Virus record (IMG/VR): IMGVR_UViG_3300037129_000090
Strand: one strand, 5' to 3'
DNA from: a virus
Lineage: Duplodnaviria > Heunggongvirae > Uroviricota > Caudoviricetes
DNA length: 64,000 bases
Shown: in pieces, positions 5,136 to 64,000 of the stretch
How positions within the stretch are numbered: position 1 is the stretch's first letter
How the letters are laid out: every line of letters begins with the position of its first letter
Program-made: the position numbers and the translations under genes
The notes under the pieces: model-generated
What the model saw: the letters and a program-made list of their open reading frames with translations, nothing else
Database searches by the model: none
Told to the model about the DNA's origin: nothing

Positions 5136-5146
5136 GGTGATAGAAA

Positions 5147-48474: not shown

Positions 48475-48594
48475 CTCCTAACTTGTAAATTGTGATCTAT
48501 TAATTGTAACTACTCATACTATCACTACAAAGTATATAAAAGTATTGTTCATAACATTGTTAGATTAATAAAAAAAAGTAAATGGAGATGATTG

Positions 48595-49086: not shown

Positions 49087-49090
49087 TGAA

Positions 49091-49696
49091 TCATCTCTCT
49101 TTCTTTATTTTAAGATTATTGTCAATGTAGGCTTCTGCCTCTCCCCATGTTTTGAATGTAAGTTTTGATTCTGCATGAGGATAAGATTCTTTATCGCGTC
49201 TAGTGTATACTAGATACACCTCTCGCGTGAGTGTGCGGTCGCGTATGTATACGGGAAGCGCGCCTATACCTGTATCTAAGTACACTGGTTGCACTATTCT
49301 AGTATACTGTTCTCCCCTGAGTGTAAACTTATCTTCGTAAACAATTTCTTTAATGAAACACTGATCGGGCATAGATGTACTTATGAATGGAGTCTTACGT
49401 TTCTTGTCTTCGTCTTCCATATTGATTATCTCAACGTTAATACTCTTGAAATAATCGAGAACATTGACAAAAACCCTCACCTGCTGACCGTTGTTATCTA
49501 CAACAAAGCCATTATCACCTGCGAGCGCAAGTTTTGTTTTTATCTCTTCAAGCTCATACCTTGTCTGTTCAAGTTTAACAGTGAGCGGAGCATACCCATT
49601 CGTGAGACCGCTTTCCCTTTCATACAGTACAGCTTCCGCAAAGTCAATAGTGTCTGTATTATTAATCTCACCCATCGTCCATCTTCGATTTGCCAT
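49091..49696 (-). CDS. hypothetical protein
   Basis: SD GGAGATGATAAGTAATG. Confidence 0.55.
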   Translation of the reverse strand: MANRRWTMGEINNTDTIDFAEAVLYERESGLTNGYAPLTVKLEQTRYELEEIKTKLALAGDNGFVVDNNGQQVRVFVNVLDYFKSINVEIINMEDEDKKRKTPFISTSMPDQCFIKEIVYEDKFTLRGEQYTRIVQPVYLDTGIGALPVYIRDRTLTREVYLVYTRRDKESYPHAESKLTFKTWGEAEAYIDNNLKIKKER

Positions 49697-49921
49697 TACT
49701 TATCATCTCCTTATAAATCAAAGAAATTTCTTCTGTTTCTGTATAACATCGATTGTAAGTTTAGCAGCTTCACTTGATAAACAACTGATAGCCGCCTCTG
49801 CATCTTCACCCTTCTTCATAGCCCCTAAGACTTCTAGCACATGCCGTTGATCGTCCAGTGATAGCTTTCCAAAAGCTTCCAATCTCTTAATATCATCTGT
49901 ATTCGTTGATTACCATCTCCT

Positions 49922-50221
49922 TTAAACACTTCCATGCGGATGTGCTAACCACCATTGTCTTGTGTGTTCTTTTGCTTCCTCTAATTTTTCAGGCATAAAA
50001 TATCTTATGTCTCCTTCGGTAAGACCACAAGCAGGACACTGATATAGGGGATTAGTGTTACGCCCGATGTATGGTTCACTAACTCTCACTACTTTTCCGT
50101 TTTCATCTCTCGCCATTGTATCTTCAACAAGCGCATTATGTTTTGCTAGTAGTTTACCTTCGTTGTTTCCACATTTGGGACATGTTAACGGTAATAATTC
50201 ACCTTCGGTCATATTAATCAT
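49922..50221 (-). CDS. zinc-ribbon protein (CPKCG...CPACG)
   Basis: Two CxxC pairs about 45 aa apart; MINM-type start. Confidence 0.5.
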   Translation of the reverse strand: MINMTEGELLPLTCPKCGNNEGKLLAKHNALVEDTMARDENGKVVRVSEPYIGRNTNPLYQCPACGLTEGDIRYFMPEKLEEAKEHTRQWWLAHPHGSV

Positions 50222-50305
50222 CTCCTTTATTCACTACTAATACTAAGCTTATATTGAATATATAATTTTCTGTCTTAACGTTGTTAGTAAAAAGTTGAAA
50301 GAGAG

Positions 50306-50712
50306 TTAGATAGTATATGCGAAGTAAGTAACACCATCGAACTCTATAATGTCCTCTGTCATATAGCGAGATAGGTATTCACCGTAGCCGCCTACTATAT
50401 TATTTGCTATACTCTCAATGAACGAATCAACATCATAAAGCAGATTGAAAAGGCACTCATCGGCATCGAAAACCTCAGAAAGGCTAAGTATTTCAACTGC
50501 TCTTATCATTCCCTCAGTACACCCCGCTTTTGTGTATTTTGCGATTGTCTCAGGACAAAATATGTGCATGTTCTCTTTGAGGACTTTATTGTTTCTTCTA
50601 TCAAGTCATTGGAGTTAATATTAAACATTTCCAGTGAATCGTTGTAAACTCTTTCCTTTGCTTTTTCTGAAAGCTCCCTATATCTGTAAACTGTGACATT
50701 TTTAGTTTCCAT
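50306..50712 (-). pseudogene. possible frameshifted member of the 45142/48595 paralog family (two overlapping ORFs 50506..50712 and 50306..50569)
   Basis: The downstream ORF matches the middle of the family (CPETIAKYTKAGCTEGMIRAVEIL vs DPKTIAEYTFEGATDWMVEAIKAL). The upstream ORF carries the SD and start. They overlap in different frames. Confidence 0.35.
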
Positions 50713-50812
50713 AATTTATCATCTCCGTAATCATTCACTACTCATACTACTCAAGCATTACATATAAACATATCGCTTCTGTCTTTGTTAGTACAAAATA
50801 AGAATTAGTGGA

Positions 50813-51106
50813 TTAAACCCCGAATCGCTCCATATGGAAGTCTTCAAGCCCGAAGTTTATATAAGTCCGGTAATCGCTTATAAGCTTCCTGACTTGCTCT
50901 ACTGTAAACGTAAGAACATTATAATAAATATTGTAATCTTGAAGATAATAATCGTTTCTATCCTGCTGCATGTCTATATCATACCTCGGTCTAAACGATA
51001 TGGATAAACTCTGTGTGCCTCTAGCACTCACTTCTATTCTTCCATCCAACTTAGGATACATTATTTGTGCTTCATCTACTATCATTGCTAATGTGTGTAA
51101 ATCCAT
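50813..51106 (-). CDS. hypothetical protein
   Basis: ORF only. Confidence 0.45.
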   Translation of the reverse strand: MDLHTLAMIVDEAQIMYPKLDGRIEVSARGTQSLSISFRPRYDIDMQQDRNDYYLQDYNIYYNVLTFTVEQVRKLISDYRTYINFGLEDFHMERFGV

Positions 51107-51133
51107 ATCGTATCAACTCCTTATTAAAAATAA

Positions 51134-51553
51134 TTAAAATAGGGACAGTTTTAGCCCTGTAAAGTTCTCGAATATCGGTTTTAATTGGTCAACATACAAA
51201 TCCTCAAAAGTTTCTACAGTCTTGGGAGGTTGCGTTACTGTTAGATAGTAAGCTTGTTTATCGCTATCGCCTTTATTCTCTCTTTTTGCTTTCGGGATTT
51301 TGATAAATTCCATCTTGTATAGGTCTTTACCCTCAAGATATGTAATTCTGCAATGTGACGCTTTTTTACATAGCTTAAACTGGAAAGTCATTTCTCCTTT
51401 TCTGCTGTATGTAAAATTCTTAGCTCCTAACATGGATTGAAGCCTTCCATAACCGCCCATTTGAGCAATTATTGTGTCGCCTATGCGTTTAGCTGTTTCA
51501 TTATCATAAAGGTAATCTTGTGTTTCCATAGTTATGTATCTCCTTTTAATCAT
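51134..51553 (-). CDS. hypothetical protein
   Basis: SD GGAGATACAT. Confidence 0.5.
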   Translation of the reverse strand: MIKRRYITMETQDYLYDNETAKRIGDTIIAQMGGYGRLQSMLGAKNFTYSRKGEMTFQFKLCKKASHCRITYLEGKDLYKMEFIKIPKAKRENKGDSDKQAYYLTVTQPPKTVETFEDLYVDQLKPIFENFTGLKLSLF

Positions 51554-51610
51554 TCTTTACTAATACTATGCACACATTACATATATACTTTTCTATTATG
51601 TCTTTGTTAT

Positions 51611-51845
51611 TTATTCCTCATACTGCTTGTCCTGTGTCTCAGCTTCAAGAAGAATCTGATAGTAATTTGAATACAAGTTATATATTCGTGTATCACCGAC
51701 AGCATGTGCAAAAACCATTATTCCTAGACACTTATCTTTAGTTAAAAGAGCCTTAAATGCATCCATACTAAATTTAGGAAGATTAACTCTTTCCATAAGC
51801 ATAATAGCCGCCGCATCTGTTGTTATTATAAATTCATCTTTCATA
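51611..51845 (-). CDS. hypothetical small protein
   Basis: Likely start MKDEF after AGGTGATAAT; the listed ORF 51611..52003 is over-extended into the upstream gene. Confidence 0.4.
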
Positions 51846-51872
51846 TTATCACCTACAAAAAATATTAGTGGA

Positions 51873-52367
51873 TTATTCTGAAACCCACTCATAATTAGCC
51901 ATTTCTTGCTTTTCGTTGTATTTCGTTGAGTGCGTTTGTGTTCCATTGTATTTAGTTGACTGTATTTGTGTTTGCACTGTCGGAGTTGTAATATCCTCAG
52001 CACTTAGAATGTTTCGATACTGTGAAATTACATCCCATCTGTAACTTACACAATCAAACTTATACTTATGACCTACTTGAATTTTTCCGTACAAGTCGCT
52101 CGAATTCCAACGCCCATTTATCGCAGAATCCCGAATTGCATAAGTTTCATTATTACCCCATACCAAATACTGAGCTGATTTTCCGTCTTTAGAAACCACT
52201 CTCTCGGCTTTTGTAACCGTGTCATAAGCTGTGCTGTGCTGTGTATCCATATAGAGACCATATACCCATATACCCACTGAGAGCCCAATTATAAGCAATA
52301 TAACAAGCACATAGATTAAATCAAATGCGCCTTCTGCTTTTTCATTATTTCTGAAACTCTTTACCAT
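51873..52367 (-). CDS. membrane protein with pilin-like N-terminus
   Basis: KAEG|AFDLIYVLVILLIIGL resembles a class III (prepilin-type) signal; SD GGAGATGTTAAACATG. Confidence 0.45.
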   Translation of the reverse strand: MVKSFRNNEKAEGAFDLIYVLVILLIIGLSVGIWVYGLYMDTQHSTAYDTVTKAERVVSKDGKSAQYLVWGNNETYAIRDSAINGRWNSSDLYGKIQVGHKYKFDCVSYRWDVISQYRNILSAEDITTPTVQTQIQSTKYNGTQTHSTKYNEKQEMANYEWVSE

Positions 52368-52369
52368 GT

Positions 52370-52582
52370 TTAACATCTCCTGTTTTGTTTTATTGATTGT
52401 CTTTTGTCGTTTATAGCTGTTTGAATTATAAGTACTGCAAAGTCAAATATACCGACACAACATAAAGCAACTGTGTCAATTAATTTTTCATTCGGAAATA
52501 CTGTATTAGACAATAGTGAAACTGCAATTACTATAATCATTGCCAGAATGCATGTCAACATATTTTTATAATATTCATCCAT
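52370..52582 (-). CDS. small membrane protein
   Basis: Two TM helices. Confidence 0.45.
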   Translation of the reverse strand: MDEYYKNMLTCILAMIIVIAVSLLSNTVFPNEKLIDTVALCCVGIFDFAVLIIQTAINDKRQSIKQNRRC

Positions 52583-52595
52583 TCTTAGCCGCTCC

Positions 52596-52805
52596 TTAAT
52601 TGATTAATCCCATTTTTACATGGTATTCCTCTTTTGTGAATTTACCTTCATTGATTAGAACATCAAGAACCTTGCTAACATCAGATGTCGTATATCCTGT
52701 TCTCATTGAAACTGTCAAAGCAACATCACATATATACGTTCTGTGTTCGCTGTGTTCTTCTAAGGCTCTTCTTGCTTCTGCTTCTATCACATTTTTATCT
52801 ACCAT
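52596..52805 (-). CDS. hypothetical small protein
   Basis: SD AGGGTAAGGTGATAACAATATG. Confidence 0.5.
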   Translation of the reverse strand: MVDKNVIEAEARRALEEHSEHRTYICDVALTVSMRTGYTTSDVSKVLDVLINEGKFTKEEYHVKMGLIN

Positions 52806-52995
52806 ATTGTTATCACCTTACCCTTTTCTTAGTATCCTAACGTCATTACTCTATTCAATCTTTCAGAATCAAGGCAACCTGCACCTGTCCTATAAACACA
52901 ATGACAGCATTTTGTTTTCTTGCATTCTGCTTTTGTTTGTGGTTTTTGCTCTCCGAATATTCCGCTTTCCATATCCGACACCTTACCCTACTTAC

Positions 52996-53202
52996 TCACT
53001 CACAAAAAACTCTCAAGCTCTGCATGTCAATATCTTTTAATGACTCTATCGCGCTTGTGTGTGATTTAATCTCTTCTTCCCACTGCCTTATTAAGTGGTT
53101 ATCATTATCTTCCTGCTTCTCAGTCGCTATCATTCGCTGTAATAGCTCTATTTCTTCCTTTAAGTGTTCTATCGTTCTCCAATGCGATTCGTACATAGCC
53201 AT
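52996..53202 (-). CDS. hypothetical small coiled-coil protein
   Basis: ORF only. Confidence 0.4.
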   Translation of the reverse strand: MAMYESHWRTIEHLKEEIELLQRMIATEKQEDNDNHLIRQWEEEIKSHTSAIESLKDIDMQSLRVFCE

Positions 53203-53216
53203 ACCTTATCCTCTCC

Positions 53217-53447
53217 TTAATCTGTTTCCTTACCCTTAGCTGCCTTGTATATTGCTTGTTTCTTCATCATCAGATAATCATTATATGCAAATGCAAGATG
53301 AGTATCCACGATTCCAATAGTGAATACAGTTATCAAGCCATCCACTACCTGAAATGTCGATTCAATTATAGTTTCGTGTCTCCTGTATTGGAAATAACCA
53401 TACTGAGACTTCTTGTATCGTAAATCAAAGCCTACAAACTTTTTCAT
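53217..53447 (-). CDS. hypothetical small protein
   Basis: SD GGAGGGTAAGGTATG. Confidence 0.5.
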   Translation of the reverse strand: MKKFVGFDLRYKKSQYGYFQYRRHETIIESTFQVVDGLITVFTIGIVDTHLAFAYNDYLMMKKQAIYKAAKGKETD

Positions 53448-53471
53448 ACCTTACCCTCCGCTTCCTTACCC

Positions 53472-53696
53472 TTATGCGCTTCCTCTTACTAACTCAGCGC
53501 ATGGAGTTATAATAATCTCATCCGGCTCTCCTTTTACATGCTCTATATCGCTCTCCTTTACCATACCTGACCGCATTTGCTCAAGAATCATATTTCTTGC
53601 TTCATCAACATTTCGAGCATACGCAAACGCAAAGCCTAAGCCGTACTGCTCTAATATGTCTCTCCAAATAAAAAGTTTAAATGAAGGTACTCGCAT
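53472..53696 (-). CDS. hypothetical small protein
   Basis: ORF only. Confidence 0.45.
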   Translation of the reverse strand: MRVPSFKLFIWRDILEQYGLGFAFAYARNVDEARNMILEQMRSGMVKESDIEHVKGEPDEIIITPCAELVRGSA

Positions 53697-53702
53697 TTAT
53701 TA

Positions 53703-53993
53703 TCAACTCCTTAGCCTACTATTGAGATAATTTATTTGGTCTTGAATTTCTTCCTCTGTATATTCGACACCAACTAAATCAAGAATATTTCCAGCCATGT
53801 CATACGATTTTATTTTATTGTATGGTAAATTATCGTTATCGTTTAGTACATTAGTTCTGTGATATTGCTCTCTGTACTGTAAACATTCACCTGAATGGTG
53901 ACAGTATCTACAAAAGCTATAATGTGTTAGATTATAGCACCCGAATGTATCCCTAGTTTTTTGTTGCATAAGTTTTACCTCTACTTCTAACAA
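53703..53993 (-). CDS. Cys/His-rich small protein
   Basis: CYNLTHYSFCRYCHHSGEC; upstream AAAAGTATATATATAA TATA-like box and GAGGT SD. Confidence 0.5.
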   Translation of the reverse strand: MLEVEVKLMQQKTRDTFGCYNLTHYSFCRYCHHSGECLQYREQYHRTNVLNDNDNLPYNKIKSYDMAGNILDLVGVEYTEEEIQDQINYLNSRLRS

Positions 53994-54031
53994 GTACTAC
54001 ATTATATATATACTTTTCTGTTCTGTTCTTG

Positions 54032-54379
54032 TTATATTTCGATACTAACTAATTCGTCACCGTCCTCGAATTCGTCAACCCATCCATGACAGTCTACTAT
54101 TTTTTTAATTCTGTTATACTTCATATTCCAGAGAATTGTGTCATTCTCGCCGTTAATGTTCTCCGCTTGCACTTCTTCATAAGTCTTAACTATACCGTTA
54201 ATAAAATAATTGCCACTCTTTTCTAGTACCTTTCCGTCATCTGATACCTTTGTTAAAAACTGAAACGATGCCGGAAATACACCATGACTATTGATAAACT
54301 GTATAGCTCTTTTTTTAACCGCTTCAATATCCCACTCAGGAATTTCTTCTAAAACTGGTTGACTACTTCCAAAATTCAT
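54032..54379 (-). CDS. hypothetical protein
   Basis: ORF only. Confidence 0.5.
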   Translation of the reverse strand: MNFGSSQPVLEEIPEWDIEAVKKRAIQFINSHGVFPASFQFLTKVSDDGKVLEKSGNYFINGIVKTYEEVQAENINGENDTILWNMKYNRIKKIVDCHGWVDEFEDGDELVSIEI

Positions 54380-54685
54380 CGGAATATCAAACCTAACAAA
54401 CTTTTTACCATATTTATCTACCTCATATATTTTAATTCTTACAACAAACTAAGTACTTATAACATATATACCTTTCTGTTCTGTTCTTGTTATACTTATT
54501 TTCAAGCTCTATAACTCAGATAAATTGTATTCAGGATTAAAACTTGCCTTTACTACAAGCCCATAGAGAGGATTTTACAAGCTTCTTAATGGAATATTAT
54601 CTCAGCTTGTCTAATCCTCTCTAATAGCCTGTAATTGCGTTACGTGTCTATGTGTTTATGAATATGCTCTCCTGTATGCGTATGT

Positions 54686-54722
54686 AAGAAAAAGGTTTAA
54701 AGGTAACTAAAATTTAAACCTC
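54686..54722 (-). terminator. hairpin GGTTTAAA-N11-TTTAAACC followed (minus strand) by TTTTTCTT
   Basis: 8-bp perfect stem spanning the stop of the SNF2 gene. Confidence 0.5.
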
Positions 54723-57056
54723 TGCAAGCGCATACAATTCTTCATTTAACGAATCATAATCTACTTCCACTTTTCTACTTGTTTTCTGTTTACATGCATA
54801 TTTTGAAATGTTTGCGTATAAATCAAAGCGCAGTTTTTTGTTATCAGAGACCACTGTTTGAGATGTGCCTCGCTTTTCTTCAAGTAACATCATTTTATAC
54901 TCTTCTATTGTATCCTCTGATAATGTATAGTAGCATGTGACAGCGTTTTTCTGTGTTATTCTGTGTGTCCTGTCTTCCGCTTGGTCATGGTCAGCGGGAG
55001 TCCACCCCAATTCAAGGAAAACGACATTAGAAGAAGCTGTAAGCGTCAGTCCAACACCGGCTGCCTTAATATTTCCGAGAAACACTAAGATTTCAGGGTC
55101 ATTCTGGAATTTTTCTTTAGCCGCTTGTCTTACTTCATCTTTCTTTACTGAGCCGTCAATCCTTACAAACTTTACTTTATCGTCCTCGAAATGTTTTTGT
55201 AATTTGTCTAAGGTCTTTATGTGAGTTGCGAATATTACTACTTTAGTTCCGGTAGCAATAAAGCTGTTATCTATCCACTCGATAGCGTTTTTCATCTTGC
55301 CTTCTATAACAATTTGACTTAATCGCTCAAACCCTCCTAATAATTGACCTCTCAGCATTTCTATTTCTTTTTGTATGCTTACTGATTGTGTTTCTTGGTA
55401 TTCAATATATAAATCCTTTATCATATCCTTTATTTCTTCAAGTTCAAGTTCCACAGCACGGTAAGCCGCCCTGTTATCAAGTTCAAAGACTACTGGTACT
55501 CTTCGCTTGTCTGGAAGCTCTTTAAGAACATCCTCTTTAATTCTTCTTATCATTACTGCTTGTAATAATGTAGCTAACTCTTTTAAATTAGTTGCACCGC
55601 TGAAATCCCATGCAGTACGATTGAACCCGATACTTATTTCCTTTCCACCACAGAACTTTTTACCAAAATTAAAGAAACCCTTAGTGGGATATAATCTTGG
55701 ATTAATAATATTCAATTGTGTGTATAATTCTTTTGGTTTATTTAATACTGGTGTTCCTGTTGCCAATATTACCATAGGCACATTTTCAGTTATTTCCTGC
55801 GCTGCCTTAGTTCTTTGAGCCTCAAGATTTTTAAGCATATGACTTTCATCAAAAACCATTATCTGAGGATTCAATTGTTTTATTTCTTCTTTATATTTTT
55901 TAAGCATATCATAATTTATTATTATTATGCTTGCTATAAGTGCTTTTTGTTTTCCGCTCTTGATTACCTGTATATCGTCGTTAGTATCAAGCCATGTTTC
56001 GCATTCATACCGCCAGTTAAGTTTAAGGCTTGCCGGACATACTATTACTGCCGTTCTTGCATCTTTATGAAGCTGTATAAATGAAAGTATTTCAATTGTT
56101 TTCCCTAATCCCATTTCATCAGCTATTAAAGCTCTGCCTTTTGCTAATTGCAGAAATTCTAAACAAGCCTTCTGAAAAGGCATTAACGTTTTACCGTGTC
56201 CGAATCCACCCAAATCAAATTCGGCATCTGTAGACATTGCTCTTGCTTTAGACTGTAAAAGTTTTCTGTTGGCAACAAATTGTATAAATTCAGAACTCAT
56301 TTTAGCATTAGGGAACTTCTCAAGAACTTCCTCAACATTATTAAGAGGTACAGTCCAATATTTTCCTGTTTCATCCTTCTCGAATTTCCTAACACTTAAT
56401 TCTTGTGCTTTAGATATAAGTTCTTCATTGTAAGGAAAACGTATGTGTATTCTGTCTCCCGCAATTGATAATGTTAAATCACTGGATTGAGAAGGAGTTG
56501 CACCTATTTCTTTGTTATTTACAACTGCAACCGCCGCTGCTTTTACATCTTTATTATTGAAATCTTCATTTTCGGCTATCCATTGTAAATATCCTAGATT
56601 TTCCTCTGCAAGTTGAGCCATAGATTTTCCTTTATGTTTACCTATAGGCATAATAAAGGCTTTCCATGATTCACGAATGACTATTTTTTGTTTAGTCCTT
56701 GTTACTGTTTTATTAGAATCTTGTGTTTCGTGCTTGCCATGAAATTCAAGTTTAATATCATCGTAATTAATACCGAAGTGTGATAACTGTTTCGTGTATT
56801 TCTTCAATTTTAGATACATTTCAATAACTGTAGAATCCCATAAGCCGCCTGTCGCTCTCTCTTTAGCTAAAAATGGTTTAAAGAATTTAGCATCAAGCCC
56901 ATTAAACCCCTGCTCATCAAGAGCCTTTGCGCCATCACAAACACAATCAAGAACGTTAGCCGCCCTCAAAATAGTTATTCTTGCTTCCGGCGTAAGTTTT
57001 CCGTATATTTGGGACATTTTAATTGCTTGGTCTTTTATTTTTTCATGCTCTTCCAT
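54714..57056 (-). CDS. HARP-SNF2 family helicase (SMARCAL1-like annealing helicase architecture) with N-terminal extension
   Basis: SNF2 motifs LADEMGLGKTIE (I), DESHMLKN (II), LATGTPVLNKPKELY (III), QAEDRTHRITQ (VI). Upstream HARP-like segment (RIHIRFPYNEELISKAQEL...KYWTVP) and MPIGKHKGKSMAQL...YLQWI motif. Confidence 0.8.
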   Translation of the reverse strand: MEEHEKIKDQAIKMSQIYGKLTPEARITILRAANVLDCVCDGAKALDEQGFNGLDAKFFKPFLAKERATGGLWDSTVIEMYLKLKKYTKQLSHFGINYDDIKLEFHGKHETQDSNKTVTRTKQKIVIRESWKAFIMPIGKHKGKSMAQLAEENLGYLQWIAENEDFNNKDVKAAAVAVVNNKEIGATPSQSSDLTLSIAGDRIHIRFPYNEELISKAQELSVRKFEKDETGKYWTVPLNNVEEVLEKFPNAKMSSEFIQFVANRKLLQSKARAMSTDAEFDLGGFGHGKTLMPFQKACLEFLQLAKGRALIADEMGLGKTIEILSFIQLHKDARTAVIVCPASLKLNWRYECETWLDTNDDIQVIKSGKQKALIASIIIINYDMLKKYKEEIKQLNPQIMVFDESHMLKNLEAQRTKAAQEITENVPMVILATGTPVLNKPKELYTQLNIINPRLYPTKGFFNFGKKFCGGKEISIGFNRTAWDFSGATNLKELATLLQAVMIRRIKEDVLKELPDKRRVPVVFELDNRAAYRAVELELEEIKDMIKDLYIEYQETQSVSIQKEIEMLRGQLLGGFERLSQIVIEGKMKNAIEWIDNSFIATGTKVVIFATHIKTLDKLQKHFEDDKVKFVRIDGSVKKDEVRQAAKEKFQNDPEILVFLGNIKAAGVGLTLTASSNVVFLELGWTPADHDQAEDRTHRITQKNAVTCYYTLSEDTIEEYKMMLLEEKRGTSQTVVSDNKKLRFDLYANISKYACKQKTSRKVEVDYDSLNEELYALAEV

Positions 57057-57444
57057 AGTTAGAACCTCTCTAATAATATTCTTGCCTGTATCTTCCTATA
57101 TGAGAGTATTCATATATAAGCATATTGCTTTAAACATTGATAGCTAAATCAGATATTGAAGAACCATTTTAAAAAATAAATTAAATAGGCATATGATTGA
57201 ATTATCTTAAACGAAATTATTACAAGCGTTATTATAAAGTTCATAATTACCACCGCTCTCTACTTGACCGCTCAATCATCTTGCGTTCTGCTTTTTCTGC
57301 ATTTTTACGCTCATGTTCTGCTCTAAGCGCGGGATTTACAAAATATTCATAAGCCGCTCTTATTGCAGACACTACAATAAACAATATCATTGCATAAAAT
57401 CCCCAACTCATAGGTTATCAACTCCATTTATTTTCTAAAGTTCT

Positions 57445-57570
57445 CTCCTTACCCATCTCAACGTTTCCTCTGTTATCGTTTATCTTCTTTATTCTTTTTA
57501 ATCGCTCCTTACCCTTCCTATTTGTCCTCTCCTTACCCTTTATATTCTCCTTACCCCTCCTGAGATGTCA
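57445..57570 (-). repeat. four spaced copies of GGGTAAGGAG (minus strand; CTCCTTACCC on plus), 28-40 bp apart, in a non-coding stretch
   Basis: The same decamer serves as the SD in front of several nearby genes (for example 52805 and 53447). Here no ORF follows. Confidence 0.5.
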
Positions 57571-57649
57571 ACCACTGTTGTTTTATTCTCTTTTCTTTTC
57601 CATCTACTTATTTTAAGATTGATTCTATATGTCATTAATTATCATCTCC

Positions 57650-58081
57650 TTAATCATAAACTAATCTGGTCATAATCTCATCAAGCTTTATGTCTCTATA
57701 TTCAGCTTCTTGAAATACTTTTTCTGCAAGCTCAACCGTCATTTTAATGTAATCATTATAATTGTTTATCGGTTCGCCGCTTTCAGCTATTCCGATTAAG
57801 TTTAGTAAGCTGTCGGTAACTTCAATATACAAGGGAATTAAACCCTCTCCATTCTGAAAGTCAAAGTATGGGCATGACCGCACAATAAAGTTTTCACTGT
57901 GCCAATAAGCTATTTTTCCATAACTTAACAGGCTATCAAAGCTTAGTTTAAAGCTCTCTCCGTTTATCGTTATGTTGCCTTTATAGTCCATAAAATCCTC
58001 TATGTTAGCTATGTAATGCATTTCTAGCATTTCCATAGTAAACATTAAGTTATTATCCTCTATAAGCCTTGTATTAACCAT
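57650..58081 (-). CDS. hypothetical protein
   Basis: SD GGAGATGATAATTAATG. Confidence 0.55.
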   Translation of the reverse strand: MVNTRLIEDNNLMFTMEMLEMHYIANIEDFMDYKGNITINGESFKLSFDSLLSYGKIAYWHSENFIVRSCPYFDFQNGEGLIPLYIEVTDSLLNLIGIAESGEPINNYNDYIKMTVELAEKVFQEAEYRDIKLDEIMTRLVYD

Positions 58082-58482
58082 TTTAAGACCATCTCCATAT
58101 TAAGTGATATGTTCCTATTAACTAATCTATTTTCATTGTGTGCGCTGCTATAAGGCATTTCATATAGTAACAATTATCAAAATCTTCCTTCCTACACATT
58201 GAAAGTGTGTAAGAGGGACACTCAGGAGTATTACACTCCTTAACAAGTCTTGATTCTGGTTTCTGGTGTTTACTTCTCTTGATTTCTGTTTTATCCATAA
58301 TTAAACCTTCTTGTTACCACGCATAAACAGGATAGATACTTATTAAACTTAGTACGTTTCCTGTTGCTCTTGCTTTATCTGCTGCATTCGGCACACTAAC
58401 GGCATCAATAGGCATTATACGAATACTTCCAGACAAATCTTCAAACGTTACATCGAATTTTACCATAGTTTTAAGCCTCCTG

Positions 58483-58857
58483 TTATGCTTTTATCATTTG
58501 TACTCCTGTTATGTGTTCACCCTTAACGTTTCTTAACTTCTCGCTTTCATCGAAAACGATTATCTTAACATTTGCGTTTAATATCGCTTCTTTATGTTTC
58601 TTGAATAAAACATAATCAATAATTATTATGCTTCCGGTTATTTCTACAGCTTTAAAGCCCTTGATTTCCTGTACTGTTTCAGTTTCACCGAAGAACTTTT
58701 CCGCTTCATTTACCCAGTTCTGTTTTAAGATAGTCTCGCAAACAATCACTGAGGGTCTCGCTTCTTTGTTGTTCAGTAAATAATTTAATGATTGAATTGT
58801 TTTTCCTGTTCCCATTTCTTCTAACATAGCTTTAAGCCTCCGATTTTCATTAATCAA
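58483..58857 (-). pseudogene. SNF2 helicase N-terminal fragment (motifs I-II only), decayed paralog of 54714..57056
   Basis: EEMGTGKTIQSL (motif I) and IIVFDESEKLRN (motif II), aligning with IIINYDMLKKYKEEIKQLNPQIMVFDESHMLKN of the full gene. Ends after 124 aa. Confidence 0.55.
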
Positions 58858-59048
58858 AAAAGGACATTAGCATATATAAGCTTATTGGTTTTATCCTTGT
58901 TGCTATTCTAAGCCCTTCTAAGCCCTTGTATATGCGTTATGTGTGTTTATATCTATATGCGCTTGTATGCCCGCCTGTGAGCCTCTTAATACCTTCTCAG
59001 CTTAAGTTTAAGTTTATGGTCTTTTTCTAGTCTTTTCCTTTTATTAAA

Positions 59049-59441
59049 TTAAATACACTGCTTGAATTGTAAAAACTTATTTCCGTATCTTTCAAATTGA
59101 TATTTTTTTCCAATTGCATTTTCTATATTACGATTAGCTGAAAAATCTGGTAAAAATACACTACTAAAATTTTCAAGCTCATCAATAAATACTAATTTAA
59201 TTCCAGTATTAAAGTCAACGTTAACTTCTGATGTTATTGTTTTTTCGTTTGTGCAATCCCTTAATATTATTGAAGTTGTATAGTTTTCTTCTTGCATGTC
59301 CTTTGATTCATTAAATTGAATTTCATTAATCTCATAAATATTAGGACATACTGGTTTTTCAGCATCAATAGCCAATGTTGTTACTACTGTTTTTTCAGAA
59401 TACCCTATTTTCTTTGTTACTTTTTTAACCATGTTTAACAT
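59049..59441 (-). CDS. hypothetical protein
   Basis: MLNM-type start. Confidence 0.5.
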   Translation of the reverse strand: MLNMVKKVTKKIGYSEKTVVTTLAIDAEKPVCPNIYEINEIQFNESKDMQEENYTTSIILRDCTNEKTITSEVNVDFNTGIKLVFIDELENFSSVFLPDFSANRNIENAIGKKYQFERYGNKFLQFKQCI

Positions 59442-59448
59442 CTCCTTG

Positions 59449-59715
59449 TTAATTGTTCTTAGGTCTCTCAGCCTCTAGCTTTATGTAAGTTTTACCTTGA
59501 CATGGGGAAGATTCACAAACAACCTTAAAGCCGTCCTTCCTCATTTCCCGCGCAAATCTGTTTCTTACCTTTGTATAGTCCGTATCGTCTTTATCAAGCC
59601 AATAAACATCTACTTTATCAAATTTTTCCAGATATTCAGCCGGATAACATCTGCTACTCCACTCTTGCGCGCCCTCCGCTATTGCTTTTGTGTTCCATTC
59701 TTCTTGTGTTGCCAT
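59449..59715 (-). CDS. hypothetical small protein
   Basis: ORF only. Confidence 0.5.
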   Translation of the reverse strand: MATQEEWNTKAIAEGAQEWSSRCYPAEYLEKFDKVDVYWLDKDDTDYTKVRNRFAREMRKDGFKVVCESSPCQGKTYIKLEAERPKNN

Positions 59716-59761
59716 GTTATTTATCTCCTTGATAGTGAAAAAAATTATTTTGTGATTTTAT

Positions 59762-60085
59762 TTAACATTCTCTTCTTAATCTCCTTTTTATGAAATTTAA
59801 TTCGCTTGTATAGTCTTGCCCTGCACAATATCCCTCTTTTGATACCCGCCTGTAGATACCGATATTTTCAGGAAGGTTATCAGGTGACATTCTTCTTATT
59901 GCTCTTGCGATTTCTGATTTTTGACTTCTGCACGTTTCGAGAAGCGCGTCCTTGATTTCCTCAAGGTATTTAATTTGCTCATCATCGGTCATGTCTCTCC
60001 ATCCTTCTTTTTCAAGGATTCTTTTACCTATGACGTTTTCAAGTGATACATGTAATTTAAATTCTCTTCTTGCTCTTCCTTCCAT
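59762..60085 (-). CDS. hypothetical protein
   Basis: Preceded by the conserved promoter/operator module. Confidence 0.5.
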   Translation of the reverse strand: MEGRARREFKLHVSLENVIGKRILEKEGWRDMTDDEQIKYLEEIKDALLETCRSQKSEIARAIRRMSPDNLPENIGIYRRVSKEGYCAGQDYTSELNFIKRRLRREC

Positions 60086-60094
60086 GCTTTTTAT

Positions 60095-60180
60095 CTCCTT
60101 GTTATTGTGAAAATTTGTTTTGTGGTTTGCATTTCACCACAAAAGATAATAGTACATTTTAGTATTTAAGCCTTGTTATT
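60095..60180 (-). promoter_or_regulatory. conserved promoter module: ATAACAAG-GCTTAAATA (TATA-like) - N17 - palindromic operator TTTTGTGGT-N9-ACCACAAAA - SD
   Basis: Copy 1 of at least 4 near-identical modules (others at 60655..60735, 61905..61995, 63200..63300). Confidence 0.5.
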
Positions 60181-60189
60181 TTGTCCTTG

Positions 60190-60636
60190 TTAAATTTTTG
60201 TAGGGACAATAAGCGTGCCCCTGATACCGAATGAGTCTCTCCTTAGTTGTTCTAATGTCTGAGCCTCTTCTATTTCTTCCGGTGTTATTGTTCCCACTCT
60301 GCATTTATCTATTAAATCATTCAACCGCTGCAATTCGTTAAATCTGAATTGCCTTAGTTGGATAGTGTTGCCGCCCTTAGCTTTTATGGTTTCAGCCAAT
60401 TGTGAATATGTCTTACCTTCCTGTTTTTTCCAGTAATCAGTTTTTTCATTAAATTGTTTTCGTATTTCGCTTTTATCGCCTGTAGGGTCAAATGTGAAAA
60501 TTTCAAGTGTGATACATTCAAATGAATTCACACCGAATTCTCCCGATACTGCAAATGCATCATTCGCTATCTGTTGGCTTGATACACATCTTAGCGTTCT
60601 TCTTTTAATCTGGTTGCTTATGTCTTTTCCTTCCAT
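60190..60636 (-). CDS. hypothetical protein
   Basis: Preceded by promoter/operator module copy 2. Confidence 0.5.
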   Translation of the reverse strand: MEGKDISNQIKRRTLRCVSSQQIANDAFAVSGEFGVNSFECITLEIFTFDPTGDKSEIRKQFNEKTDYWKKQEGKTYSQLAETIKAKGGNTIQLRQFRFNELQRLNDLIDKCRVGTITPEEIEEAQTLEQLRRDSFGIRGTLIVPTKI

Positions 60637-60654
60637 TTGTAAAACCTCTTAATT

Positions 60655-60735
60655 GTTTTGTTTGTGGGTTTTATTTTACCACAAACAATAAAGCATATTT
60701 AACTATTTAAGCCTTGTTATCTTGTCTTTGTTAGA
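60655..60735 (-). promoter_or_regulatory. conserved promoter/operator module, copy 2 (TTTGTGGG-N9-TACCACAAAC)
   Basis: See copy 1. Confidence 0.5.
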
Positions 60736-61143
60736 TTAAAGTCTGCAAAAAGCCTAGAGTAAAGCTGATAGTACAATAAGCAACATAGCAGAGTAAAGCA
60801 ATTTCATAAGGATTATTTGTATTGATACTCATTTCAAGCACTCCTTAAACTCTTTATATTTTTTCTGAACCATTTGCTGTTTTCGTTTTTCTGGTATTCC
60901 TTTTCTTCTTTCATTAAAGCCTTGTATTCTAACATATCAGCTTTTTCTATTTGTATTTTCATGTTTACCGCCCCGAATTAAAATTTAAGGTTTTTACAAG
61001 TATAGGATAGTCCGGTTAATCTGCTTAGTTCTTCCGCTTCTTCTTGATTCAATCCTCTACAATTGAGAATATCAAACAGCATAGTTATTTTTTCGCTTAT
61101 TGATAATTTCCATTTACCGTTTATGTATTTCATGTTTACCGCC

Positions 61144-61452
61144 TCAGAAATTATAATCATAAAACTTTACTGGAACATCAGAAATAATATGTTTACCGTA
61201 TTTACTCCAATAAAAGCCGTCTTTCCTCATATAAGCTTTTATTAATGGGTTGTTTTCGTTTTGCGCTATTATCCATTCTTGTTTATTGTTATTCGTACAA
61301 ATTGCAGAGAAGCCGCCTTCAACGTATTCAGGTTTAAAAGCCTTCTCAAATTGCATTTGTCTTATTGTTATTGTTTTTTTCGTTTCCTTTATTACTTCAA
61401 AAGGTACAATATCAGAATATCCATGTAAGTTAGCATATTTTTTTTCTTCCAT
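61144..61452 (-). CDS. hypothetical protein
   Basis: ORF only. Confidence 0.45.
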   Translation of the reverse strand: MEEKKYANLHGYSDIVPFEVIKETKKTITIRQMQFEKAFKPEYVEGGFSAICTNNNKQEWIIAQNENNPLIKAYMRKDGFYWSKYGKHIISDVPVKFYDYNF

Positions 61453-61475
61453 GTTAACCGCTTCCTGAAAAAGGA

Positions 61476-61748
61476 TTAATAGAAGTTATAAGCTTTTACC
61501 GCGTCACCGCTTGCATGAAGCTTAATTAAAATGTGGTCGTCGTATCCGTCAAACCCTTCCATAAACTTTGGAGGGTTCACACAATACACTTTATTATGCA
61601 AGTTCATTATTTCGTCTAAGAAGTATTTGTTACCTCTGAATACAAAATAACTTCTACAGTCTTCCTCTTCACTCTCAGGAACATCAGTCTGAATTTCAAG
61701 CCAATGTTCGTTTCCGGTTATTGTAACACCGTCTATTGTTTTCTTCAT
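61476..61748 (-). CDS. hypothetical small protein
   Basis: Upstream tandem AAATCAAGTTATAATA repeats. Confidence 0.5.
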   Translation of the reverse strand: MKKTIDGVTITGNEHWLEIQTDVPESEEEDCRSYFVFRGNKYFLDEIMNLHNKVYCVNPPKFMEGFDGYDDHILIKLHASGDAVKAYNFY

Positions 61749-61774
61749 TCTTTAAAACCTCTTATTTTATTATG

Positions 61775-61820
61775 ACTTGATTTTATTATAACTTGATTTT
61801 ATTATAACTTGATTTAAGTA
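61775..61820. repeat. tandem direct repeat, 16-bp unit acttgattttattata x about 3
   Basis: Perfect copies at 61775..61790 and 61791..61806, partial third copy. Lies between the tRNA-Asp 3' end and the next gene start. Confidence 0.6.
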
Positions 61821-61827
61821 TCAAGTA

Positions 61828-61899
61828 CGCCAATGTCGGGAATTGAACCCAAATCCAAACGCCGACAACGTTTGATGATAGCCATTACACTACATTGGC
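61828..61899 (-). tRNA. tRNA-Asp (anticodon GTC), no encoded CCA
   Basis: Manual fold of the reverse complement GCCAATGTAGTGTAATGGCTATCATCAAACGTTGTCGGCGTTTGGATTTGGGTTCAATTCCCGACATTGGCG: 7-bp acceptor, D-loop with GG, perfect anticodon stem AAACG/CGTTT with loop TTGTCGG, T-arm TTGGG-TTCAATT-CCCGA, discriminator G. Confidence 0.75.
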
Positions 61900-61904
61900 A
61901 TTTA

Positions 61905-61995
61905 CTTTTATTTAACCTCTTATCTGTTTTGTGGTTTGCATTTTACCACAAACATTAAAGAACGTTTCAATATTTAAAGCTTGTTATTCGTATTT
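61905..61995 (-). promoter_or_regulatory. conserved promoter/operator module, copy 3, upstream of tRNA-Asp (GCTTTAAATA ... TTTGTGGT-N9-ACCACAAAA)
   Basis: Same module as copies 1-2 and the plus-strand copy at 63200..63300. Confidence 0.5.
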
Positions 61996-62159
61996 TGTTA
62001 GTTTTCTGGTAAAACGCTATTTTTAGCTTAAACAGCCTAAGTATAGCGTTTTACCATTTGGATAGTGACAAATATGATAGAATCAATTTTCTGTATATCG
62101 TTTCTGGTAATGTGGTTTCTCCTTCCTAATGGATTTTAGTTATCAGTCAATCTTCTATA

Positions 62160-63180
62160 CGCATATGCGCCCGCGTATATGTCACTTGTATGTGATCATG
62201 TCACACGTACTTGTATTCGTGTTATACGCGCATATCCGCGCATATGTGCCCATGTCATACGTATATGCGCCATTTCATTAATGCGCCCGCGCATGTTAAA
62301 ACGCGCCCGCGTATTAATTAATGCGTAATGCGTATGTCAAAAGGCTATATAGCTGATATATCCGATTTGATACGTTTAATATATCAGCTTTCCATACTAT
62401 TTAGCTTATGTTTTACTACCTATTCTTATCATTCCTCCATGATTCGATACTACTACAAATACCTCTGAGAATATAAAGCTTTCGTATGGTATGCTGTTAT
62501 TTTAGAATGTAGTATCTCATATATAACGCACTCGCATGATACGTATTATGCGCCCGCGTAATATGCGCCCGCGTGTATTATACGTATAGCGCATAATGCG
62601 CGTAATGTAGCAACCAATAGATTTATATGCAATAATGCCATAGTAATTGTATCGAATTTAAGCTAAAACAACAAAAAACACTATACGCGGGCGCGCATAA
62701 TGCGTATATGCGTATATAAAGGAGATTTGAAACATGGATATATTTGTATCTGGATTTATAGCGGGATTTATAGGTACTTTGTACGTAATCATTAATATTA
62801 GTAGTATATTGATAAACCTTAAAGCCATATTTGCTAAACGTACATAACGCGGGCATAATACGTATGCGGGCGCGTTTAATACGTATGCGTGTACGTATAA
62901 GACGCGGGCGCGATATACGTATATACGCGCATAATACGTTATGCAACGCGGGCGCGCATGATACGCATACGTATAATACGTTATGCGCGCATAATATACG
63001 TTATGTGTACGTATAGGCTTTAAGGTTTAATCTGAAAGTCTTATATATACGTATGCGTTATAATACGCGGGCGGGCGCGCATATATAGAGAGAATTAAGG
63101 CAAAAAGCAATAAATCAGGCTTTTTGAGTAATTCCCTATACGCGGGCGCGCATATAATAATATAACGCGGGCGCGCATAT
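62160..63180. repeat. array of about 13 GC-rich 10-bp motifs CGCGGGCGCG (each flanked by ATRCG/CGYAT) in inverted orientation around about 62630; putative origin/iteron or protein-binding array
   Basis: C-strand orientation (GCGCCCGCG) at about 62168, 62283, 62303, 62551, 62567. G-strand orientation at about 62690, 62868, 62904, 62948, 63064 (extended GGGCGGGC), 63142, 63168. A roughly 200-bp AT-rich motif-free gap at 62320..62545. Sits at the strand-switch point. Confidence 0.6.
62734..62847 (+). CDS. possible 37-aa hydrophobic peptide embedded in the repeat array
   Basis: Strong SD AAGGAGAT 7 nt before the ATG; sequence MDIFVSGFIAGFIGTLYVIINISSILINLKAIFAKRT. Confidence 0.3.
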   Translation: MDIFVSGFIAGFIGTLYVIINISSILINLKAIFAKRT

Positions 63181-63199
63181 AATGACGTAAAATAGCTTA

Positions 63200-63300
63200 A
63201 ACTTAGCTAAAAAGGATAAAACCAATAGCTTTAAATAGATTACTTGCATTAGTCTTATTGTGGTACGATTTACCACAAAACAACAAAATAAGGAGATAAC
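63200..63300 (+). promoter_or_regulatory. conserved promoter/operator module, plus-strand copy (GCTTTAAATAG ... TTGTGGTA-cgattt-ACCACAAAACAA - AAGGAGAT) driving the GHKL ATPase gene
   Basis: Aligns base-for-base with the minus-strand copies. Confidence 0.5.
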
Positions 63301-63305
63301 AAGCG

Positions 63306-64000
63306 ATGCAACAAGAAATAATGGAAAATCGAGAAATAGCTAGAATCAAGGTAGATTTTAACTATTTCAAAACATGTGCAAAAAGAGAATATACGCAAAA
63401 ATTACCGGTAATCTGGATTAGGGAAGCATTGCAGAATTCGACCGATGCGGGCGCGGAAAACGTTTGGATTGAGTTAACCGATGACGAAATTACCTTTACA
63501 GATGACGGAAAAGGTATGGATTCAAATATCATTAACAATAAGCTGTTAACTCTCGGCGGGTCATTAAAAGACGCGGGCGCGGTCGGGGGATTTGGAAAAG
63601 CAAAAGAAGTTTTGTTTTTCTGCCATGAAGAATGGAGTATTACAAGCTGTCCGAATAAAAATACTAAATACTTCATTAATCACCAAATGATTGACAAAGT
63701 ACCAATAAGGATCACTAAGGGCGAATTTACTAAGGGAACAGAAATAAAAATAAAATATGATCCTAACGAATGTAATAAACAAACATGGGCTTCATGTATA
63801 AGGGACTTTGTTTCAACCTGTAGTACAAAAACTAAAATCTTCCTTAACTGCGATGAATTAGTTAAATTGGAAAATAGAGGAAAATGCATTGAGTATGACA
63901 TAGGAACACTCAGGATAAACAAAAGTAAGAAAACTAATAATGTCTATGTAAGAATAAGAGGAATTACAATGTTCTCCTTTTCGTCATGGGGAGACATTGA
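63306..64000 (+). CDS. GHKL-superfamily ATPase (MutL/Hsp90/MORC-like Bergerat fold), 5' partial, runs off the window
   Basis: Motif N IREALQNSTDAGA and motif G1 DDGKGMD; a second Gly-rich segment GGSLKDAGAVGGFGK. Confidence 0.7.
   Translation, partial: MQQEIMENREIARIKVDFNYFKTCAKREYTQKLPVIWIREALQNSTDAGAENVWIELTDDEITFTDDGKGMDSNIINNKLLTLGGSLKDAGAVGGFGKAKEVLFFCHEEWSITSCPNKNTKYFINHQMIDKVPIRITKGEFTKGTEIKIKYDPNECNKQTWASCIRDFVSTCSTKTKIFLNCDELVKLENRGKCIEYDIGTLRINKSKKTNNVYVRIRGITMFSFSSWGDI

Follow-up and report, generated by a model that had tools for sequence, protein, structure and literature searches.

Transcriptional control in methanogen viruses is essentially uncharted, the known regulators of archaeal viruses coming from viruses of the Sulfolobales and of haloarchaea (PMC5569661, PMC10123103). 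In SSV1 (Fuselloviridae), F55 recognises one short site that recurs at several clustered early promoters (T5, T6, Tind and Tlys) and overlaps the transcription start and the BRE, i.e. one factor controls a set of genes transcribed with the host TBP, TFB and RNA polymerase (PMC5569661). For the phiH1 repressor and the winged-helix (wHTH) protein Orf4 of SNJ2, a palindrome lies by the core promoter and a dimeric winged-helix repressor has been proposed or shown; SNJ2 has a single regulated promoter, with the palindrome beside the TATA box and a spacer of critical length, a 1-nt change of which abolished repression in the one archaeal virus operator so tested (PMC10123103). SIRV1 and SIRV2 carry a virus-specific element, the GTC motif, between TATA and start at many of their promoters (cited in PMC5569661).

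The locus described here, in a 64,000-nucleotide stretch of DNA (the window) from an uncultivated virus, shares features with each of these systems: one short site is repeated at several clustered promoters, it is a palindrome by the core promoter, and it lies downstream of TATA at the predicted start. We hold with middling confidence that the palindrome, at the predicted start of transcription, acts as a cis-regulatory site shared by several promoters, most likely as the operator of one repressor. That the four modules carrying it are paralogs, all copied from a single archaeal (TBP/TFB-dependent) promoter cassette, is a proposal in which we place about the same, intermediate, degree of trust.

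Results

Four cassettes with a common layout

The preliminary description reported four promoter-plus-palindrome modules, and all of them were confirmed (M1 to M4, Table 1). Their common layout is TAACAAG, a box-A/TATA element (C/TTTAAATA), 19-20 nt, TTGTGG-N9-11-CCACAA and a Shine-Dalgarno (SD) sequence. The TATA octamers fit TTTA(A/T)ATA, and every copy of the palindrome is intergenic, on the strand of its gene and at a constant distance from an exact match to that motif. An A-rich stretch (AACAAGG or CCAATAG), without a recognised BRE consensus, adjoins TATA upstream at the BRE position, and a second upstream element, TAACAA(G/A), lies 14 nt farther out in each module; downstream there is an AT-rich segment at about -10 (CTTTAWTGTT) and a leader of 25-40 nt with the SD. 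The modules head four units that flank an origin-like region, namely the 107-aa gene and the genes downstream of it (M1), the 148-aa gene (M2), the tRNA-Asp and five small genes (M3), and the GHKL ATPase and the genes downstream of it (M4).

Several details of the earlier reading were revised. The gap between the end of TATA and TTGTGG measures 19-20 nt rather than about 17 nt. The arms, which had been read as perfect over 8 bp, do form a real palindrome (exact in three copies, mismatched in one), but the symmetric core that is constant across modules is only 6 bp, TTGTGG/CCACAA, with spacings of 11, 11, 11 and 9 nt. An SD is present in each module, but in two variants (AAGGAGAT in M1 and M4, TAAGAGGTT in M2 and M3, where that of M3 is vestigial) rather than as one common sequence.

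In Methanolobus/Methanosarcinaceae the distance from BRE/TATA to the transcription start is 19-22 nt (PMC5378194). TTGTGG begins at the 20th-21st nt after TATA, i.e. at the expected Methanosarcinaceae start, and its T-G steps fall 21-25 nt after TATA. The left half-site is thereby predicted to coincide with the start, in agreement with the earlier placement of the palindrome.

Table 1. Positions of the modules, their elements and related features in the window.
Feature	Position	Strand	Remarks
Module M1	60093-60192	minus	5' of 107-aa gene (59762-60085)
M1 distal element TAACAAGG	60185-60192	minus	overlaps stop codon of 148-aa gene
M1 proximal element ATAACAAGG	60171-60179	minus	
M1 TATA CTTAAATA	60163-60170	minus	
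M1 inverted repeat	60118-60144	minus	cores 60137-60142 and 60120-60125
M1 SD AAGGAGAT	60093-60100	minus	
Module M2	60643-60734	minus	5' of 148-aa gene (60190-60636)
M2 distal element CTAACAAAG	60726-60734	minus	
M2 TATA CTTAAATA	60704-60711	minus	
M2 inverted repeat	60661-60685	minus	cores 60679-60684 and 60662-60667; 7th position mismatched
M2 SD TAAGAGGTT	60643-60651	minus	
Module M3	61914-62002	minus	ortholog of the L285 module directly 5' of 90-aa gene
M3 distal element CTAACAAAA	61994-62002	minus	
M3 TATA TTTAAATA	61971-61978	minus	
M3 inverted repeat	61927-61952	minus	cores 61946-61951 and 61929-61934
M3 vestigial SD TAAGAGGTT	61914-61922	minus	
Module M4	63207-63297	plus	5' of 514-aa GHKL ATPase (ATG 63306)
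M4 distal element CTAAAAAGG	63207-63215	plus	
M4 ACCAATAG	63221-63228	plus	
M4 TATA TTTAAATA	63230-63237	plus	
M4 half-sites	63258-63263 (TTGTGG), 63273-63278 (CCACAA)	plus	9-nt spacing
M4 SD AAGGAGAT	63290-63297	plus	
tRNA cassette	61766-61913	minus	~158-bp insertion between M3 and 90-aa gene; 13-nt leader
tRNA-Asp(GTC)	61827-61900	minus	part of tRNA cassette
Three 16-nt tandem repeats	61764-61821	minus	part of tRNA cassette
Promoter P5	58873-58903	minus	upstream half that of M4 (AACAAGGATAAAACCAATAAGCTTATATA); no palindrome
Palindrome-less promoters (TAACAAG, ~17 nt, TTTATATA)	span 47845-57143: 57113-57143, 54464-54492, 54005-54034, 50762-50792, ~50258-50287, 48533-48564, 47845-47875	minus	
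Module remnant (3' half)	59712-59758	minus	TCACAAAA, right-arm-like, with 5'UTR and SD AAGGAGAT; 5' of 88-aa gene

Occurrence and conservation of the palindrome

The pattern TTGTGGT-N6-10-ACCACAA has three exact matches (60120, 61929 and 63258), against 0.00 expected from 100 dinucleotide-preserving shuffles; the fourth copy (60661-60685) has a single mismatch, at the innermost arm position (GTGGG/ACCAC). Further operator sites, for which a search had been recommended, were found neither in the window nor in the 6.6 kb past its right end on the same contig (L121). A scan of other loci, about 1 Mb in all, gave a single chance match, and the combined TATA-plus-palindrome pattern had 0 matches across IMG/VR. 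The same pattern gave 39 single matches in metagenome contigs, all unrelated on inspection (including the promising-looking L201), and the palindrome alone gave at least 120 single chance matches across IMG/VR, which were uninformative. Searches of 50,697 phage records with megablast, blastn and tblastn matched neither the region nor the GHKL ATPase.

The preliminary description had named absence from related genomes as grounds for refutation; the palindrome is present in two relatives, L285 and L288. Within 6 kb of L285, whose homologue of the 107-aa protein shows 86% identity, there are six intact modules and a seventh that has decayed; a module precedes nearly every gene in this block of small ORFs. 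L288 (homologue of the 148-aa protein, 66%) has one intact and one decayed module. The TATA octamers of these relatives are TTTAAATA, CTTAAATA, TATAAATA or TTTATATA. Across the 11 intact copies in the three genomes, no deviation occurs at the 12 core positions (132 of 132 cells identical), with the spacer, -10 block, loop and leader just 49-68% identical. The left arm keeps a constant distance from TATA in these copies and the right arm floats, the half-sites being spaced by 9 nt in one copy, 10 in two, 11 in seven and 12 in one. The decayed copies (R1_3 and R2_A) retain their TATA and gene, which suggests that the promoter can work without the palindrome, as would be the case for a negative element. 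The relatives identified through the GHKL ATPase (L123-L165) show synteny and have repeated promoter cassettes of their own, from which the palindrome is absent; the reuse of such cassettes by distant relatives, e.g. AAAACAATAAGTTTATATA three times in L126 (47% GHKL identity), counts against reading the palindrome as an operator.

Promoters without the palindrome and the tRNA insertion

About nine further promoters in the virus have the same upstream architecture and no palindrome. Those listed together in Table 1 lie 36-70 nt 5' of a start codon with an SD of the GGAGATGA type or the AGAGG/GAGG type, and P5, which drives a 114-aa gene encoding an SNF2 N-terminal fragment, serves as an internal control. 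The existence of promoters of the same architecture without it indicates that the palindrome is a separable, class-specific control element, marking a separate class of promoter. A weaker fifth copy had been reported at about 59735, but this remnant, in a 46-nt gap, lacks both TATA and the left arm and is therefore not a promoter module.

M3 had also been described as driving the tRNA-Asp. It is positioned upstream of that gene, but the relation is one of position only: the tRNA cassette is flanked by a direct repeat, ATAAGAGGTT (61756-61765 and 61914-61923), and is missing from the orthologous site in L285. Judged from this sequence comparison, the tRNA-Asp was inserted secondarily, in this lineage, into the leader of the cassette that belongs to the 90-aa gene.

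Discussion

A proposed operator at the predicted start

If the palindrome is the operator of one repressor, it would place the four units near the origin-like region under one common signal. A single sequence-specific factor, viral or host, would bind both invariant half-sites and, with TBP and TFB occupying TATA, would block the recruitment or initiation of RNA polymerase, the outcome being coordinated shut-off or timing of the module gene set, which is probably early. Archaeal repressors bound downstream of TATA are known to block RNA polymerase recruitment or initiation in this way. In this explanation we infer the start position, the binding of a protein and the sign of regulation. The module genes had been likened to a lysogeny switch, which is without support as no integrase was found in 70 kb, and an early gene class is the more natural guess.

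The idea of a common repressor agrees with the repeated, conserved site, but an operator would be expected to have a fixed half-site spacing, and the 9-12 nt observed here vary; nor was a small HTH or ribbon-helix-helix (RHH) gene, suggested earlier as a candidate, detected nearby by Pfam or by AlphaFold and Foldseek. Pfam at lenient thresholds found only the HTH of an IS607 resolvase and generic zinc ribbons among 86 small ORFs, and Foldseek matched the AlphaFold models of the 148-aa and 107-aa proteins (pLDDT 72.6 and 55.8) to no DNA-binding fold in the PDB. The 148-aa protein had looked by eye like an HTH protein, and was rejected since its model, a three-strand sheet with four helices, has no fold match.

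A possible hairpin in the transcript

Variable arm spacing and the failure to detect a regulator make a 5'-terminal RNA hairpin a rival to be taken seriously, although we consider it somewhat unlikely. The palindrome would then act in RNA, the transcripts of the class beginning with an identical stem-loop (GUGG(U)...(A)CCAC, up to UUGUGG/CCACAA) that either shields the mRNA from 5'-3' decay (RNase J/aCPSF2-type) or tags it for one RNA-binding factor, giving class-wide stabilisation, processing or translational control. With the left arm opening at the predicted start, the hairpin would form the very 5' end of the transcript, and regulatory 5'UTRs are common in Methanosarcinaceae mRNAs (PMC5378194). 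A loop varying over 9-12 nt while the left arm holds its distance from TATA is exactly what a hairpin model predicts, the seventh pair is a U-G wobble in one copy, and if the whole repeat is transcribed the stems reach -8 to -11 kcal/mol (z -1.8 to -3.7 against shuffles). However, with a start at the G of TTG only 4-5 bp and -3.9 to -7.3 kcal/mol are left, in which case M2 does not surpass shuffles (z = 0.03). Covariation scores no higher than in shuffles (0.040 against 0.044), the six pairs being invariant and the flanking pairs breaking without compensatory change, and complete sequence invariance amid diverged flanks exceeds what pairing alone needs. Rfam matched only the two tRNAs, with no family for the palindrome.

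A more speculative proposal, which we think unlikely, is that the repeat, instead of being a duplex operator of the classical sort, forms a hairpin at the first transcribed nucleotides, in RNA or in extruded non-template DNA, that is read sequence-specifically by one viral factor. Were such a dedicated "class tag" of early transcripts real, it would be an archaeal counterpart of phage hairpin-dependent early expression, and the first defined cis-regulatory code of a large Methanosarcina-associated virus.

A possible positive element, and the probable host

We regard it as improbable that the repeat is a positive, class-defining element at or around +1, i.e. an activator or specificity site, read by a viral or alternative host initiation factor, that directs host RNA polymerase. 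The class does have its own TATA variant (TTAAATA, where the window's promoters that lack the palindrome have TTATATA) and a conserved -10 block, and the modules before nearly every small ORF of the L285 block resemble a dedicated early promoter; SIRV promoters offer a precedent for a virus-specific motif downstream of TATA (PMC5569661). However, the L288 copy uses TTTATATA, so the TATA variant and the palindrome are not strictly linked, and the decayed palindromes still stand on an intact TATA before intact genes. The search for TFB, TBP and TFE homologues found none, giving sub-threshold zinc-ribbon matches only. Known archaeal activators, moreover, bind upstream of the BRE.

Judging from indirect evidence, a methanogenic archaeon, most likely of the Methanosarcina type, is the probable host. 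The TnpB shares 72-77% identity with dozens of copies from Methanosarcina/Methanosarcinaceae (best bacterial copies 47%), a GHKL homologue is named in a Methanogenium MAG, and a 2178-aa PKD-repeat protein is of archaeal style, with a signal peptide and a C-terminal membrane anchor. Since the host is most likely archaeal, the match to the archaeal TATA consensus pointed out in the preliminary description is meaningful. In a bacterial host, which we consider very improbable, TAACAA would be a -35 and TTAAAT or TAAATA a -10 hexamer at 17-19 nt, and the palindrome, lying within the leader at 13-35 nt, would serve either as a roadblock operator or as a hairpin in the RNA. Every copy does contain two hexamers separated by about 17 nt, the SD sites are strong and of the GGAG type, and the 107-aa family is present also in Bacillus and Parabacteroides phages; in L289 a 52% homologue sits behind TTGACA-N18-TATAAT, and the DNA at that promoter resembles the upstream half of M1. 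However, neither candidate -10 hexamer has A2 and T6 together, sigma-70-like sites are not enriched (73 against 78.8 +/- 10 expected) and none falls at the modules. The module 8-mer is an exact methanogen box A and, besides the TnpB identities, the contigs with GHKL relatives belong to methanogen MAGs and use SD sites of the GGTGA type.

Two further roles were rejected: a terminator, as no T-run follows the hairpin on either strand and no module appeared in a terminator scan, and an origin iteron, as every copy is in constant register with TATA and a downstream gene and the L285 copies lie kilobases from any origin-like repeats.

Comparison with known systems

The cassettes probably form a shared on/off switch; such control, with one site per promoter class, would be of an ordinary kind, though one that has not previously been described for methanogen viruses, and its value lies in the system rather than the principle. 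A strong box-A promoter with an invariant 6+6-bp element at the predicted start makes a compact, testable unit, for which the promoter lacking the element, the decayed copies and the 9-12 nt spacing variants are natural controls. The unit could be moved into Methanosarcina reporters and could give a repressible promoter part for methanogen genetics.

Coliphage N4 also has repeated early-region promoters, each with a small conserved inverted repeat close to where transcription starts; these repeats form DNA hairpins (5-7-bp stem, 3-nt loop) upstream of +1 that are read by a virion-packaged phage RNA polymerase. The modules differ from N4-type hairpin promoters in having loops of 9-12 nt, a position at +1 and a canonical archaeal TATA, and no viral RNA polymerase domain was found among the proteins scanned, which cover part of the genome, several larger ORFs having been compared with PHROGs only or left out.

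Compared with SSV1, a temperate virus in which F55 binds as an RHH dimer to tandem direct repeats (ATAGATAG), this virus has an inverted repeat of variable spacing and a probable methanogen host, with no RHH protein or integrase found. Compared with SNJ2, there are four promoters (six intact in a relative) rather than one, the site is at the predicted start rather than beside TATA, the spacing ranges over 9-12 nt and no wHTH protein was detected. The SIRV1 and SIRV2 element is a trinucleotide found at most promoters, whereas here an inverted repeat of 21-24 bp distinguishes a subset of them.

Four promoter modules share a palindrome with an invariant core

The preliminary description had claimed four promoter modules, and reading 59400-64000 confirmed that all of them are present, each on the strand of its gene. 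Each module (M1-M4) contains a TAACAAG element, a box A/TATA, an inverted repeat (TTGTGG-N9-11-CCACAA) and a Shine-Dalgarno site. The pattern TTGTGGT-N6-10-ACCACAA was observed 3 times against an expectation of 0.00, with M2 carrying a single mismatch at the innermost arm position, and neither the window nor the 6.6 kb past its end on the same contig contained any additional palindrome copy. A 'weak copy' near 59735 proved to be just the 3' half of a module, lacking both the TATA and the left arm.

Promoters with and without the palindrome
Feature	Position	Strand	In front of
M1	60093-60192	minus	107-aa gene
M2	60643-60734	minus	148-aa gene
M3	61914-62002	minus	tRNA-Asp (61827-61900)
M4	63207-63297	plus	514-aa GHKL ATPase (PF13589)
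Palindrome-less promoter (P5)	58873-58903	minus	
Palindrome-less promoter	57113-57143	minus	SNF2 helicase
Palindrome-less promoter	54464-54492	minus	
Palindrome-less promoter	54005-54034	minus	
Palindrome-less promoter	50762-50792	minus	
Palindrome-less promoter	48533-48564	minus	
Palindrome-less promoter	47845-47875	minus	

The palindrome is a real, non-random and conserved feature. Its conservation in related genomes, on which the preliminary description had made its reading depend, was seen in both related contigs reached via homologues of the 107-aa and 148-aa proteins. The first (L285) is syntenic, encodes a 107-aa homologue with 86% identity and has, within 6 kb, six modules that are intact and one that has decayed, each followed by a gene; the second (L288) encodes a 148-aa homologue with 66% identity, with one copy intact and another decayed. 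When the 11 intact copies were compared, TTGTGG and CCACAA were identical in 132 of 132 cells; mean pairwise identity was 0.89 for the TATA, 0.68 for the loop, 0.59 for the -10 block, 0.58 for the leader and 0.49 for the initial part of the spacer. The distance from the TATA to the start of TTGTGG was mostly 19 nt (eight copies), otherwise 20 nt (two) or 21 nt (one), and the arms were separated by 9 nt (one copy), 10 nt (two), 11 nt (seven) or 12 nt (one). In further loci, amounting to about 1 Mb, there was one chance match, and more distant relatives such as L126, a GHKL-encoding contig with 47% identity, reuse promoter cassettes of their own that lack the TTGTGG/CCACAA repeat.

The palindrome is separable from the promoter

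Further promoters were sought with a profile built from the module upstream halves, which yielded about nine more sites, all on the gene strand with start codons 36-70 nt downstream, and all with the layout TAACAA(G/A), about 17 nt, TTTATATA. The palindrome was absent from every one of these profile-found promoters, and hence is a separable feature, one that sets four promoters apart. Those four flank an origin-like GC-rich repeat field (62150-63180).

The TAACAA(G/A)/~17 nt/TTTATATA architecture is virus-wide (47845-58903, minus; 37990-38009, plus; ~65701-65727 on the extended contig), with its conserved distal element at roughly -50 and a two-hexamer geometry that superficially mimics a bacterial -35/-10 pair. 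One gene with a promoter of its own (P5), at 58483-58857 (minus, 114-124 aa), encodes only the N-terminal segment of SNF2 (PF00176, E = 4e-11); the full-length SNF2 helicase (54714-57056, minus) is 1.4 kb downstream of it, and the short gene may have arisen by duplication of a fragment or by gene splitting.

The origin-like field consists of GC-rich 9-mers within AT-rich DNA, GCGCCCGCG being commonest on its left side (62160-62580) and the complement CGCGGGCGC on its right (62680-63180), and contains a 37-aa hydrophobic ORF (62734-62847) with its own Shine-Dalgarno site. A 20-nt inverted repeat at 62007-62056 (TGGTAAAACGCTATTTTTAG / CTAAGTATAGCGTTTTACCA, 90% complementary, 10-nt loop) sits immediately upstream of M3, between that module and the field. 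In L126, a comparable GCGCGCGTA field is located between SNF2 and GHKL (L126 2750-3400), at the edge of which, the expected place of divergent promoters, a 33-nt inverted repeat (L126 2656-2727, 88% complementary) surrounds a TTTATATA box.

The tRNA-Asp is a late addition

The proposal that a module drives tRNA-Asp holds in that the tRNA is probably co-transcribed from M3, but alignment with L285 indicates that it did not belong to the set from the start. There the M3 orthologue directly drives the 90-aa gene, and the orthologous site lacks the ~158 bp that are inserted in the leader of this gene in the window (61756-61923, minus); the tRNA-Asp is thus a recent passenger. The insertion comprises a 13-nt leader, the tRNA-Asp and 16-nt tandem repeats in three copies (61764-61821), with a 10-bp direct repeat, ATAAGAGGTT, on either side, and resembles a small mobile cassette carrying a tRNA. 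Behind M3, only a vestige of the Shine-Dalgarno site remains.

Host and genome context

The window, which represents the replication and accessory portion of a large mobile genome, encodes a D5-like primase, helicases, SNF2, dUTPase/dCTP deaminase, thymidylate kinase, a methyltransferase and Fic. A Methanosarcina-type methanogen is the most likely host. The TnpB at 42047-43159 shares 72-77% identity with dozens of Methanosarcina/Methanosarcinaceae copies, and at best 47% with bacterial copies. GHKL relatives were located in IMG/VR viral contigs, and a Methanogenium MAG is the source named for one homologue. A 2178-aa protein (29081-35617, plus) contains 14 PKD repeats together with a signal peptide and, at its C terminus, a membrane anchor.

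This PKD protein also has many N-x-S/T sequons, resembles Methanosarcina surface proteins and is unusual as viral cargo. Three genes are of the TnpB type, one within 41962-43248 and the others within 4551-6379 and 35998-37260; that at 42047-43159 has near-identical hairpins, CCACTGAGTCTT(C/T)AGCTCAGTGG, on its two sides (41962 and 43226), and that at 5147-6379 comes after an IS607-type serine recombinase gene (4551-5135).

Likenesses also occur in other contigs. At 300-395 of a different, bacterial-looking contig (L289), a 52% homologue of the 107-aa protein stands behind TTGACA-N18-TATAAT, and L289 DNA (TTTGACAAGACAAAATAA...) is similar to the M1 upstream half (TTTAACAAGGACAAAATAA...); the family is also found in Bacillus and Parabacteroides phages at ~35% identity. 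A distant GHKL-encoding viral contig (L133, IMGVR_UViG_3300037246_002669) has six intergenic copies of another palindrome, TTTGCAA-N4-TTGCAAA, between 295 and 19975, some adjoining TTGACA-type promoters; the regulatory logic is the same, in what is apparently a bacterial phage.

Possible functions of the palindrome

In Methanolobus (Methanosarcinaceae), transcription starts 19-22 nt from the BRE/TATA (PMC5378194), and the left half-site therefore lies on the predicted transcription start. Our leading reading, to which we give roughly an even chance, is that the palindrome is a putative duplex operator for a common repressor. This would explain its symmetry, its sequence invariance without covariation, its confinement to a single class of promoter and the persistence of promoters in which it has decayed. 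The variable half-site spacing counts against an operator; in SNJ2, a 1-nt spacer change leads to loss of repression (PMC10123103).

The same variability favors a less likely alternative, that the palindrome forms a 5'-terminal RNA hairpin, as do two further points against an operator: the left arm keeps its distance from the TATA whereas the position of the right arm shifts, and no DNA-binding protein was found in a search that covered Pfam scans of 86 small ORFs and structure models of the 107-aa and 148-aa proteins, including a product of the small HTH or ribbon-helix-helix gene that the preliminary description had proposed to look for. Candidates for a binding factor are the small ORFs behind M1-M4 (107, 148, 90, 102, 51, 42 and 33 aa) and a 48-aa zinc ribbon (67112-67258 of the extended contig). 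The hairpin is predicted to have a stability of -8 to -11 kcal/mol when the whole repeat is transcribed and -4 to -7 kcal/mol if the start is the G. However, the total sequence invariance exceeds what pairing by itself needs. We consider it improbable that the palindrome is a positive class-specific element. That the modules are bacterial promoters is very doubtful indeed; sigma-70-like sites were not enriched (73 vs 78.8 +/- 10) and 0 coincided with modules, which also counts toward a methanogen host. Box A of methanogens is TTTA(A/T)ATA, which the module octamers, (C/T)TTAAATA, match exactly or nearly so. The earlier reading of the TATA as part of an archaeal promoter is well supported. The suggested lysogeny switch is without support, because no integrase was found in 70 kb.

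The palindrome is new in its system, since we know of no cis-regulatory element defined so far for such methanogen viruses, and is ordinary in kind. The precedent for a duplex operator is SSV1 F55, the sites of which overlap the transcription start and BRE at several early promoters (PMC5569661).
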